A DNA stretch of 64,000 nt from Escherichia phage vB_EcoM_ASO1B. Every line of letters starts with the position of its first letter. Positions within the stretch are counted from its first letter, which is position 1. The notes beneath the pieces were generated by a model. That model searched no databases, had not been told where the DNA came from, and saw only the letters and a list, made by a program, of their open reading frames with translations. The translations under genes and the position numbers were made by a program. The stretch is taken from sequence record MZ726792.1. The stretch is one strand, 5' to 3'. Positions 1,162 to 1,934 of this stretch are shown piece after piece.

Positions 1162-1233
1162 CAGAAGACCAATTACAGCAAACTTAATCTACTCATCTGA
1201 CACGAAATCGGACAAAGAAGATATTTGGTCTGG
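1162..1233 (+). ncRNA. repeat unit U1: CAGAAGACC 5' box, conserved hairpin, GGTCTGG 3' box (candidate small structured RNA)
   Basis: 5' box 1162-1170, hairpin ATTA-CAGCAAACT-TAAT, 3' box 1227-1233; AGACC/GGTCT can close the unit. Confidence 0.45.
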
Positions 1234-1244
1234 TCATTGAGAAT

Positions 1245-1321
1245 TGCGGGTATAGAGAAAGGGCGTCTCACATGTCTCATTAGCATGGTATCGGCAGGTT
1301 CGACTCCTGCACCCGCCTCCA
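1245..1321 (+). tRNA. tRNA-Met (anticodon CAT; Met, fMet or Ile-lysidine not distinguishable)
   Basis: T-arm GCAGG-TTCGACT-CCTGC, acceptor 3' ACCCGCC + CCA, anticodon loop CTCATTA; 1:72 mismatch. Confidence 0.6.
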
Positions 1322-1327
1322 ATTTTG

Positions 1328-1387
1328 CAGAAGACCGTATTCAGCAACAAAATACTTTTTGCGGATAAAAGAAAAAACACGGTCTGG
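1328..1387 (+). ncRNA. repeat unit U2 (same family as U1)
   Basis: CAGAAGACC 1328-1336, hairpin GTATT-CAGCAACAA-AATAC, GGTCTGG 1381-1387. Confidence 0.45.
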
Positions 1388-1398
1388 CAATGTATTAA

Positions 1399-1475
1399 GG
1401 TTAGGAAGCACATAAGGTATGTGCGGTCGCCTGTTAAGCGAATGGCACAGGGTTCGAATCCCTGACTAACCGCCA
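1399..1475 (+). tRNA. tRNA-Asn (anticodon GTT)
   Basis: D-stem GCAC/GTGC, anticodon loop CTGTTAA, T-arm CAGGG-TTCGAAT-CCCTG, CCA. Confidence 0.75.
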
Positions 1476-1484
1476 AATTTAAAT

Positions 1485-1572
1485 GTGTCGTTATCCCGTA
1501 GATGGTAGCGGTGGGGACTGTAAATCCCTTGTCATTGAGACTCGGTAGGTTCGACTCCTACACGGCACACCA
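1485..1572 (+). tRNA. tRNA-Tyr (anticodon GTA), long variable arm
   Basis: Acceptor GTGTCGT/ACGGCAC, anticodon loop CTGTAAA, about 15-nt variable arm, T-loop TTCGACT, CCA. Confidence 0.7.
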
Positions 1573-1577
1573 ATAAA

Positions 1578-1655
1578 GGTTATGTAGTTTAATTTGGTTA
1601 AAATACTCCCCTGTCACGGGAGATGATGAGGGTTCAAATCCCTTCGTAACCGCCA
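1578..1655 (+). tRNA. tRNA-Asp (anticodon GTC)
   Basis: Acceptor GGTTATG/CGTAACC, anticodon stem CTCCC/GGGAG with loop CTGTCAC, T-loop TTCAAAT, CCA. Confidence 0.75.
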
Positions 1656-1680
1656 ATTTTGAGAGGGCTATTTAGCCCCT

Positions 1681-1714
1681 CCCTTAAAGGGTTCTTACGA
1701 GTATCCTTTAAAGG
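1681..1714 (+). repeat. recurrent ~30-bp motif M, copy 1 (CCCTTAAAGGGTTCTTACGAGTATCCTTTAAAGG)
   Basis: Near-identical to 5031-5060 and similar to 2528-2560; contains palindromic CCTTTAAAGG. Confidence 0.5.
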
Positions 1715-1716
1715 AG

Positions 1717-1789
1717 CAGAAGACCAAATACAGCAAGAACGTATGAAATTTCAAGCCAATTTAATTTTGAAAATTTAAACTTGGTCTGG
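1717..1789 (+). ncRNA. repeat unit U3 (same family as U1)
   Basis: CAGAAGACC 1717-1725, hairpin ATAC-AGCAAGAAC-GTAT, GGTCTGG 1783-1789. Confidence 0.45.
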
Positions 1790-1802
1790 CTCAACAAATT
1801 TA

Positions 1803-1934
1803 CAGAAGACCGTTTACAGCAAAACTTAAACAATCTATTTCTCCGGTAAAGAAAAGGCGAAGGTTCGATTCCTTCACTCGGCAGATGTCGAGTTGGTGTA
1901 ATGGTAGCACTTAAGATGATAAACAACGGTCTGG
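1803..1934 (+). ncRNA. repeat unit U4 carrying a permuted tRNA-like module (candidate Y-RNA-like/YrlA-like ncRNA)
   Basis: 5' box 1803-1811, hairpin GTTTA-CAGCAAAACT-TAAAC, T-arm 1859-1875, acceptor 3' strand 1876-1882, 4-nt loop, acceptor 5' strand 1887-1893, D-arm 1896-1910, 3' box 1928-1934. Confidence 0.5.

Follow-up and report, generated by a model that had tools for sequence, protein, structure and literature searches.

Candidate Y-RNA-like partners of a DUF2828 Ro60-fold protein in the tRNA cluster of a Felix O1-type phage

Introduction

Small RNAs that accompany Ro60-fold proteins have been described for Ro60/Rsr and its YrlA RNAs (Chen et al. 2014, PMC4201824; RF02553) and for the Ro60 of Thermus phage phiLo with Yrl1 and Yrl2 (PMC12135203; PDB 9KOP, 9L5Y). 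In phage Bas63, the protein gp130 was noted to have a Ro60-like fold and to counter the Ppl defence, and the authors of that work guessed that some annotated tRNA genes could be Y RNAs (PhageMaP preprint, 10.1101/2024.10.10.617714). Here we analyse a 64,000-nucleotide stretch of DNA from Escherichia phage vB_EcoM_ASO1B, a Felix O1-type phage (sequence record MZ726792.1; the whole stretch is called the window in what follows, and positions are counted from its first letter). The window begins inside the gene for a relative of gp130, and four repeated units lie downstream of this gene in the spacers of a tRNA cluster. We propose that these units are probably small non-coding RNA partners of the encoded Ro60-fold protein, Y-RNA-like and released by tRNA processing.

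The units also resemble RNAs described from a very different source. The Class I RNAs of Dictyostelia, which are ~60 nt long, are encoded by free-standing genes and occur free and abundant in amoebae; they start with AAG, feature a short covarying terminal stem with an 11-nt motif after its 5' strand, continue with a variable body, end in CUGU, and are reported to be absent outside Dictyostelia (PMC7919456). They were discovered in 2004 and have been linked to development.

Results

Four units with paired termini lie between the tRNA genes

ARAGORN identifies 25 tRNA genes on the + strand between positions 993 and 6144, and the units occupy spacers in the first part of this cluster, starting 332-973 nt past the stop codon of the Ro60-fold gene and on the same strand:

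1159-1236, + strand: unit 1, between tRNA-Glu and tRNA-Met; outer stem TGAC/GTCA; core from AAG (1165) to CUG (1232); motif AAUUACAGCAA
1325-1390, + strand: unit 2, between tRNA-Met and tRNA-Asn; outer stem TTGC/GCAA; core 1331-1386 (56 nt)
1714-1792, + strand: unit 3; outer stem GAGC/GCTC; core 1720-1788; from the minimum-energy fold
1800-1937, + strand: unit 4, a long form; outer stem TTAC/GTAA; core 1806-1933 around a permuted tRNA-like domain

The original prediction had recognised four repeats framed by a 5' box and a 3' box, and both boxes were located exactly where it had placed them: CAGAAGACC starts at 1162, 1328, 1717 and 1803, GGTCTGG ends at 1233, 1387, 1789 and 1934, and the combination AGAAGACC-N3-6-CAGCAA occurs four times in the window compared with 0.00 expected occurrences in 100 shuffles. 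The proposal that AGACC in the 5' box closes each unit by pairing with GGTCT in the 3' box was likewise confirmed, as this pairing is present in the minimum-energy folds of all four units. Just beyond the boxes we observed an additional 4-bp outer stem whose sequence is different in every unit and whose complementarity is kept in orthologues, with an AGA/G internal loop between the outer and the inner terminal stem of each unit. As these outer stems extend beyond the boxes, the true extents of the units are those given above. The covarying helix is the terminal stem, in which the inner part is conserved and the outer 4 bp vary from copy to copy. Every unit has both AAG and CUG, the nucleotide following CUG is G, and the Felix-type copies pair beyond these ends. 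The expected position directly downstream of tRNA 3' ends applies to units 1 and 2, which follow the preceding tRNA after 4 and 3 nt, respectively, and not to unit 3, located 58 nt after tRNA-Asp, or unit 4, which follows unit 3.

A second hairpin, with a 4-5 bp stem that differs in every copy and surrounds CAGCAA, had been proposed as the covarying element, and its compensatory changes had been taken as evidence for selection on RNA structure. Among 57 distinct family members, the best stem around CAGCAA measures 3.53 bp with the unit's own downstream sequence and 3.50 bp with the downstream sequence of another unit, stems of at least 4 bp are found in 54% and 46% of cases, respectively, and in orthologues of units 1-3 the hairpin is often broken, to as few as 2 bp. 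This pairing is a chance product of AU-rich sequence, and CAGCAA most likely serves as a recognition motif in single-stranded form. The argument from compensatory changes fails for the CAGCAA hairpin and stands for the terminal helix, and the broader suggestion of a family of small structured RNAs with paired termini is upheld by the folds and by the covariation of that helix.

The arrangement is widespread among close relatives of the phage. Over window positions 800-2400 the sequence matches that of Escherichia phage vB_EcoM_ASO1A (Felixounavirus) with 100% identity, and at least 237 phage records of the Felixounavirus type, Bas63 included, cover at least 80% of this segment with the arrangement conserved.

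The terminal module recurs beside distant DUF2828 genes

We collected 80 loci encoding relatives of the upstream protein, which belongs to the DUF2828 family; 15 of them are Felix-like and 65 are distant (protein identity 39-46%). The exact boxes are found in the 15 Felix-like loci only, and a looser module extends farther out, consisting of AAG, a 5-7 bp covarying stem, UU(A/U)CAGCAA, a body, the second strand of the stem and CUG. Using a loose grammar (AAG, at least 5 pairs counted from the G, CAGCAA 7-11 nt past the G and a 3' CUG), we identified 35 more sites in the distant loci compared with 1.2 per shuffle replicate. Each of these sites is on the gene strand and, with few exceptions, no farther than a few hundred bases from the DUF2828 open reading frame (ORF), and their stem sequences all differ. 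The anchor AAG-N8-CAGCAA, which involves no preselection for pairing, occurs 39 times in the 65 distant loci and always on the gene strand; 27 of the 37 distinct anchors are followed downstream by their own 5-nt complement and UG, compared with 13.5% when stems are swapped. Base composition may account for part of the gene-strand bias of the anchor count and leaves the complement test unaffected. In the window, AAG-N8-CAGCAA also occurs in coding sequence at 24865, 25525, 42395, 49446 and 59190 (+ strand), each time without a 3' partner; these five sites are chance matches, and because of them the 5' anchor alone is not to be regarded as specific on the coding strand.

In a gapless alignment of 37 members, 91% of the cells of the terminal helix are paired, compared with 66.5% after shuffling and at most 40% with a slid partner, where the pair counts for columns 9-13 are partly circular in that members were chosen for pairing there; column pair 14-37, which lies outside this selection, is paired in 34 of the 37 members and by four pair types. 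The covariance model derived from this alignment (R1) was built from fixed-length 5' and 3' ends because MAFFT on full-length units misplaced the 3' strands, and as a result R1 and a second model of this kind (R2, described below) leave the bodies undescribed and miss long forms. R1 produces 37 matches in 636 kb, all on the + strand, and in the 64-kb window it detects just units 1-3 (40.4 bits with a rough E-value of 6e-7, 37.3 bits and 31.3 bits, respectively; the fold z-score of unit 2 is -2.77). Using R1 and R2, we found a copy in at least 33 of the 65 distant loci, almost all of them no more than ~600 nt from the ORF.

The linkage was also analysed in reverse, starting from 81 unselected IMG/VR matches to the 14-base 5' anchor AAAG-N5-TTACAGCAAA. 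Of these, twelve have a 3' partner; in four of them a same-strand DUF2828 gene is located at a distance of 108-569 nt, which applies to none of the 69 partnerless matches (hypergeometric probability ~3e-4 by our own arithmetic).

Additional members of the family were noticed along the way. Well-formed copies, two of them with T-arm-like inserts, are present in phage contigs L158 (4840-5440, - strand) and L156 (2830-2905, + strand), and an ORF judged by eye to be histidyl-tRNA-synthetase-like is located nearby in L158. A subfamily represented in L035 (5413-5470) and in L022, L024, L029, L030, L031, L037 and L041 begins with UUAG instead of AAG and repeats the AGCAA core twice more in its body (ACAGCAA, CAAGCAA, CUAGCAA), a repetition which hints that AGCAA could be the recognised unit. 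The ORFs beside ten distant DUF2828 genes include no obvious RNA-repair genes as judged by eye, no family-library scan having been made.

Copies of the module are located in the leaders of DUF2828 mRNAs

In several loci the module lies in the 5' leader of the DUF2828 gene. It ends 13-18 nt before the start codon in L020 (2327-2364), L023 (3949-3986), L026 (3945-3987) and L040 (3857-3982), and in the KVP40-like loci L017 (3966-4005) and L018 (3958-4013) module and start codon overlap; in leader-type copies a Shine-Dalgarno sequence immediately follows CUG. Because the module sits before or over the start codon, these leader copies resemble an autoregulatory operator and suggest that the protein recognises its own mRNA through the module. 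Such a layout is usual where an RNA-binding protein binds a copy of its ligand in its own mRNA.

The upstream gene encodes a predicted Ro60-fold protein

3-827, + strand: gene of the Ro60-fold protein, C-terminal 274 codons and stop; DUF2828 and DUF7788/vWA; the window begins inside the gene

The upstream ORF matches Pfam DUF2828 and DUF7788, and only these at E up to 1, as well as PHROG 850, which carries the label 'RNA-binding protein'. In the predicted model, the protein adopts a Ro60 fold across both domains and over its full length, featuring the helical-repeat ring and the vWA domain with MIDAS site that characterise the Ro60/TROVE architecture, and the MIDAS residues D279, S281 and S283 are invariant in 44 homologues. 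The protein has no match to Pfam TROVE (PF05731), and searches of PDB sequences with the single sequence and with a 44-sequence profile returned no Ro60 or other solved relative, so the likeness to Ro60 is visible by fold comparison alone. The DUF2828 family is very large, with more than 2,500 clusters matched in one search.

The full-length ASO1A orthologue (L001:4613-6025) is 98% identical to Bas63 gp130 and occupies the same position upstream of tRNA-Pro. Searching Bas63 with R1, we found units 1-3 and the 5' part of unit 4, all in spacers and partly covered by the small opposite-strand coding-sequence annotations bas63_0137 and bas63_0138.

A comparison of the window with ASO1A (window 3-827, L001 5204-6028) revealed several codons that differ upstream of base 800, for example KYGN and NWMAEG...CMTD in the window compared with KHGN and NWVAEG...CMSD in ASO1A. 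These codon differences, set against the 100% identity across 800-2400, suggest a mosaic junction close to the end of the Ro60-fold gene.

Unit 4 contains a permuted tRNA-like domain

The body of unit 4 is folded into four arms:

1838-1854, + strand: V hairpin, from the consensus fold
1859-1875, + strand: T arm, loop UUCGAUU
1876-1893, + strand: closed acceptor-like stem, 7 bp, closed by a loop
1895-1911, + strand: D arm, loop AAUGGUA

The consensus fold comprises 34 pairs common to seven orthologues, contributed by the outer and inner terminal stems, a 5-bp hairpin and the T, acceptor-like and D elements. Three pairs of the acceptor stem show changes on both sides among these orthologues (ACTCGGC/GTCGAGT, ACACGT/GCGTGT, ACCCTTC/GAAGGGT). 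The order V-T-AS-D (AS, acceptor stem) is permuted, lacks an anticodon loop and is the same as in published YrlA. Long forms with T arm, closed stem and D arm recur in the distant loci L033, L040 and L070. The Rfam tRNA model scores 22 bits at 1826-1876, covering the V and T part only and staying below its 29-bit threshold, and ARAGORN makes no tRNA call in unit 4. We considered unit 4 as an ordinary tRNA and rejected this assignment, as its arms are permuted relative to the cloverleaf order and there is no anticodon loop. Also rejected was GGCGAAGG as a YrlA-type motif in unit 4, since it lies at the T stem and reads GGAGAAGG or GAGAGAAGG in orthologues.

Next to unit 4 we observed a further structured element:

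1935-2081, + strand: adjacent structured RNA (E5), ~145 nt, between unit 4 and tRNA-Lys; 23-bp terminal stem

E5 has a fold z-score of -6.5, and 7 of its pairs are kept via changes on both sides in nine orthologues. The loop of its inner hairpin (2036-2062) is CUUAAGCAA, or CCUUUAGCAA in divergent relatives, and recalls the UUACAGCAA motif. Judged by the single feature of this UU(A/U)AGCAA loop, E5 is possibly a fifth relative of the unit family. In Bas63, small minus-strand ORFs are annotated over its counterpart.

Putative promoters and other elements of the tRNA region

846-874, + strand: sigma-70-like promoter, ahead of tRNA-Pro
937-966, + strand: sigma-70-like promoter, ahead of tRNA-Pro

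Both promoters derive from a consensus scan, a pattern match alone, with 10 of 12 matches each, and they are the likely start of a transcript that would contain the tRNAs together with the small RNAs.

The tRNA region contains other elements that were noted in passing. A second repeated element forms hairpins, seen by eye, at 1682-1714, 2524-2556, 5030-5059 and 3140-3230 (+ strand), with the core AAGGG(T/C)T(C/T)(T/C)TA(C/A)GAG(T/A)(A/G)TC(C/T)TT. A region resembling transfer-messenger RNA (tmRNA) spans 2376-2648 (+ strand); the Rfam tmRNA model matches part of it (2376-2565, 16 bits, E 0.0019), the permuted tmRNA model scores 29.2 bits at 2260-2444, and a tag-like frame, ANDNVFLAVA followed by a stop, is located at 2412-2444. 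After the tag-like frame follows a tRNA-like gene (2567-2645, Rfam tRNA 31.7 bits) with a G3:U70 pair read by eye. ARAGORN calls neither a tmRNA in 2376-2648 nor a tRNA at 2567-2645. Another tRNA-like sequence without an ARAGORN call lies at 2794-2875 (+ strand); its anticodon loop carries CCA (Trp), its D region is oversized, and it matches Rfam tRNA-Sec with just 23 bits (E 0.4).

The phage RNAs resemble the Class I RNAs of Dictyostelia

The only non-tRNA Rfam family that repeatedly matches the units is Dicty_Class_I_RNA (RF01414), which scores 24.0 bits on unit 2 and 12.8 bits on unit 4 and, in related loci, 19.7 and 17.9 bits in L002, 31.9 bits in L040 and 28.8 bits in L036; its gathering score of 41.5 is reached nowhere in the window or the related loci. 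The likeness involves the 5-7 bp covarying terminal stem, (C)CUUACAGCAA immediately following the 5' strand, an AU-rich body in which an A-rich tract precedes the 3' strand, a size of ~55-65 nt and, for the predicted RNA ends, the AAG start and the CUG(U) end, and some members of both groups have T-arm-like inserts (asu_can_20 and ppa_can_99 in amoebae). A deposited Class I example is laid out as GTTGAC-CTTACAGCAA-...-AAGAAAAAC-...-GTCAAC-TG, matching the phage RNAs. The terminal stem is conserved in structure and not in sequence, as the stems of the 37 phage members differ yet pair. The phage RNAs also carry the 11-nt Class I motif CCUUACAGCAA, in which U3, C6, C9, A10 and A11 are nearly invariant: the U two positions before CAGCAA is invariant in the 37 members, and CAGCAA itself is invariant by construction of the set. 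In the window, units 1 and 4 have the motif as (G/A)UUUACAGCAA, unit 2 has it as GUAUUCAGCAA and unit 3 as AAAUACAGCAA, and only in units 1 and 4 is position 3 a U.

A covariance model constructed from 26 Dictyostelid sequences only (R2) was searched on 664 kb of phage loci and produced 11 matches at E <0.01; of the 16 matches at E <0.1, 14 lie on the gene strand and at most ~600 nt from the DUF2828 ORF. R2 matches missed by the loose grammar include GGUUCC-UUACAGCAA...GGAACC-UG in L022, L024, L030, L031, L035 and L037. Its match to unit 2 of the window is weak (13.1 bits).

The two groups also differ. From the G to CAGCAA, the phage RNAs have a spacing of 8 nt and the amoeba RNAs mostly one of 9 nt, and CUG is followed by G or A in phages and by U in amoebae. 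Amoeba genes have a DUSE promoter ~60 nt upstream, whereas the phage units lack DUSE and lie in a tRNA operon behind sigma-70-like promoters, and the phage RNAs are predicted to be parts of polycistronic bacterial transcripts. Moreover, the known binding protein in amoebae is the RRM protein Rnp1A and not a Ro60-fold protein. Four proteins have been pulled down with the Class I RNA DdR-21, among them DDB_G0281243, which has no known function. In the literature searched we found no connection of Class I RNAs with Y RNAs or Ro60, and DDB_G0281243 and the DUF2828 motif words gave no match in the partial proteome files of the Kjellin et al. 2021 supplements (PMC7919456).

From the similarity of the RNAs alone, we put forward the tentative idea, which we hold to be somewhat short of an even chance, that the phage RNAs and the Dictyostelid Class I RNAs could form one family whose constant module docks DUF2828-type Ro60-fold proteins. 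Class I RNAs would then play the role of 'Y RNAs' for a DUF2828 protein; they would probably have been acquired from viruses or be shared with them, as mimivirus-like members of DUF2828 have been recorded. The idea predicts that a DUF2828 protein with affinity for Class I RNAs is encoded in Dictyostelium, and DDB_G0281243 is one candidate.

Weak matches to the amoeba model are also present on the opposite strand ~1.7 kb upstream of the window start, in L002 (2932-2972, - strand) and L011 (2935-2975, - strand), with E 0.013-0.035. They are located in the leader of ASO1A_043, a gene transcribed divergently, their 3' strand includes AGGAG, and they possibly represent a further target or a chance match.

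Discussion

In the explanation that we favour, the units would be modular RNAs. A constant platform, made up of AAG, a short terminal helix with invariant A-U and G-C closing pairs, UU(A/U)CAGCAA in single-stranded form and the 3' CUG, would serve as the protein-binding site, and the variable body would act as an effector module, which in unit 4 would be a tRNA mimic (T arm, D arm, closed acceptor stem) as in YrlA. The units would be transcribed together with the tRNAs from the promoters at 846-966 and cut free as stable RNAs when RNase P and tRNA 3'-end nucleases process the adjacent tRNAs, while the Felix-specific outer 4-bp stems would shield the RNA ends. Once bound, the RNAs may contribute to the anti-defence activity of the protein. 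Among the functions listed by the original prediction, a Y-RNA-like role is the best supported, because the upstream gene has a predicted Ro60 fold and unit 4 has the tRNA-mimic layout of YrlA; the Rfam scan for Y RNA and YrlA models that it had suggested gave no match on the units.

Several observations weigh against this explanation. Rfam YrlA (RF02553) matches none of the units at E up to 10, its threshold of 69 bits is not reached, and the sole YrlA match in the region spans two tRNAs (17.3 bits). The motif GNCGAA(N0-1)G is absent from units 1-3 and E5, and unit 4 has one match, which its orthologues do not share; the animal GGUCCGA bulged-helix motif is not found in units 1-3 or E5 either. 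About half of the 65 distant DUF2828 loci contain no detectable copy, the good RNA candidates in L156 and L158 have no DUF2828 gene in the 9-13 kb examined, and the E-values of R1 and R2 are rough due to a shortened calibration. Furthermore, plasmid-expressed gp130 alone restores T7 growth on the Ppl host (10.1101/2024.10.10.617714), so this phenotype needs no unit RNAs.

The leader copies near or on the DUF2828 ribosome-binding site suggest action in cis, and the units are interleaved with tRNAs, as would be expected if they were binding sites for the Ro60-fold protein inside a long tRNA precursor, controlling or protecting its processing without becoming free RNAs. Such an arrangement shares the protein-RNA contact with the explanation favoured here and differs just in the form of the RNA. 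We nevertheless regard it as unlikely: many loci have solitary RNAs downstream of the gene and without a neighbouring tRNA, and the paired termini and the ~60-nt size match the free, abundant RNAs of amoebae. Slightly less probable again is that the units serve the tRNA operon only as spacers or processing elements, in the form of conserved RNase E, RNase III or RNase P sites which direct the maturation of the tRNAs, and are degraded afterwards. The gaps of 3-8 nt by which units abut tRNA genes, outer stems that could be nuclease sites and the other repeated hairpins of the same tRNA region would fit this role; however, the module also accompanies DUF2828 genes in loci in which no tRNA was detected (L036, L067) and is present in the 5' leaders of DUF2828 genes, the amoeba RNAs have free-standing genes, and the tRNA-like domain of unit 4 with its compensatory changes exceeds the needs of a cleavage signal.

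Decayed tRNA genes or DNA-level repeats, left as scars of recombination or homing endonucleases and devoid of RNA function, could in principle explain the tRNA-derived arms of unit 4 and would be in keeping with the HNH endonuclease insertions found in this region in some relatives (H49). Yet all copies share one strand, the stems accept G-U pairs, the helices are kept by changes on both sides across phages whose proteins are ~40% identical, and the permuted V-T-AS-D order is itself conserved, which together leave this origin highly improbable.

If the units are indeed RNA partners of the Ro60-fold protein, they would provide candidate RNA partners for the very large phage family DUF2828, which is without assigned function and of which one member defeats a bacterial defence. 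The Ro60/Y RNA principle, a ring protein with modular small RNAs of which one mimics tRNA, would thereby be extended to a second protein family and a second motif. The similarity to Class I RNAs would be the first lead from beyond the amoebae on the role of these RNAs, a question that is about twenty years old. On a practical level, annotations should be corrected in Bas63 and its relatives, where these RNAs are unannotated or lie under spurious small ORFs.

Compared with the described systems, the present family stands apart from that of phage phiLo in both components, as phiLo combines a TROVE protein with CGAA-motif RNAs. Protein gp130 of Bas63 is encoded by the same gene as the upstream ORF (98% identity, same place); the authors of the PhageMaP study named no RNAs, and the candidates presented here sit in spacers and not in annotated tRNA genes. 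With respect to YrlA and Ro60/Rsr, the present protein is of the DUF2828/DUF7788 and not the TROVE type, AAG...UU(A/U)CAGCAA...CUG takes the place of GNCGAA(N)G as the platform, a tRNA operon surrounds the RNAs, and three of the four units are without a tRNA-like domain, which Salmonella YrlB is likewise not known to have. What the two systems have in common is several RNAs per locus, located no more than ~1 kb from a Ro60-fold gene and on the same strand, 5' and 3' ends that pair with each other, and, in the long form of unit 4, a V element, T arm, closed acceptor stem and D arm that follow one another in the same order.

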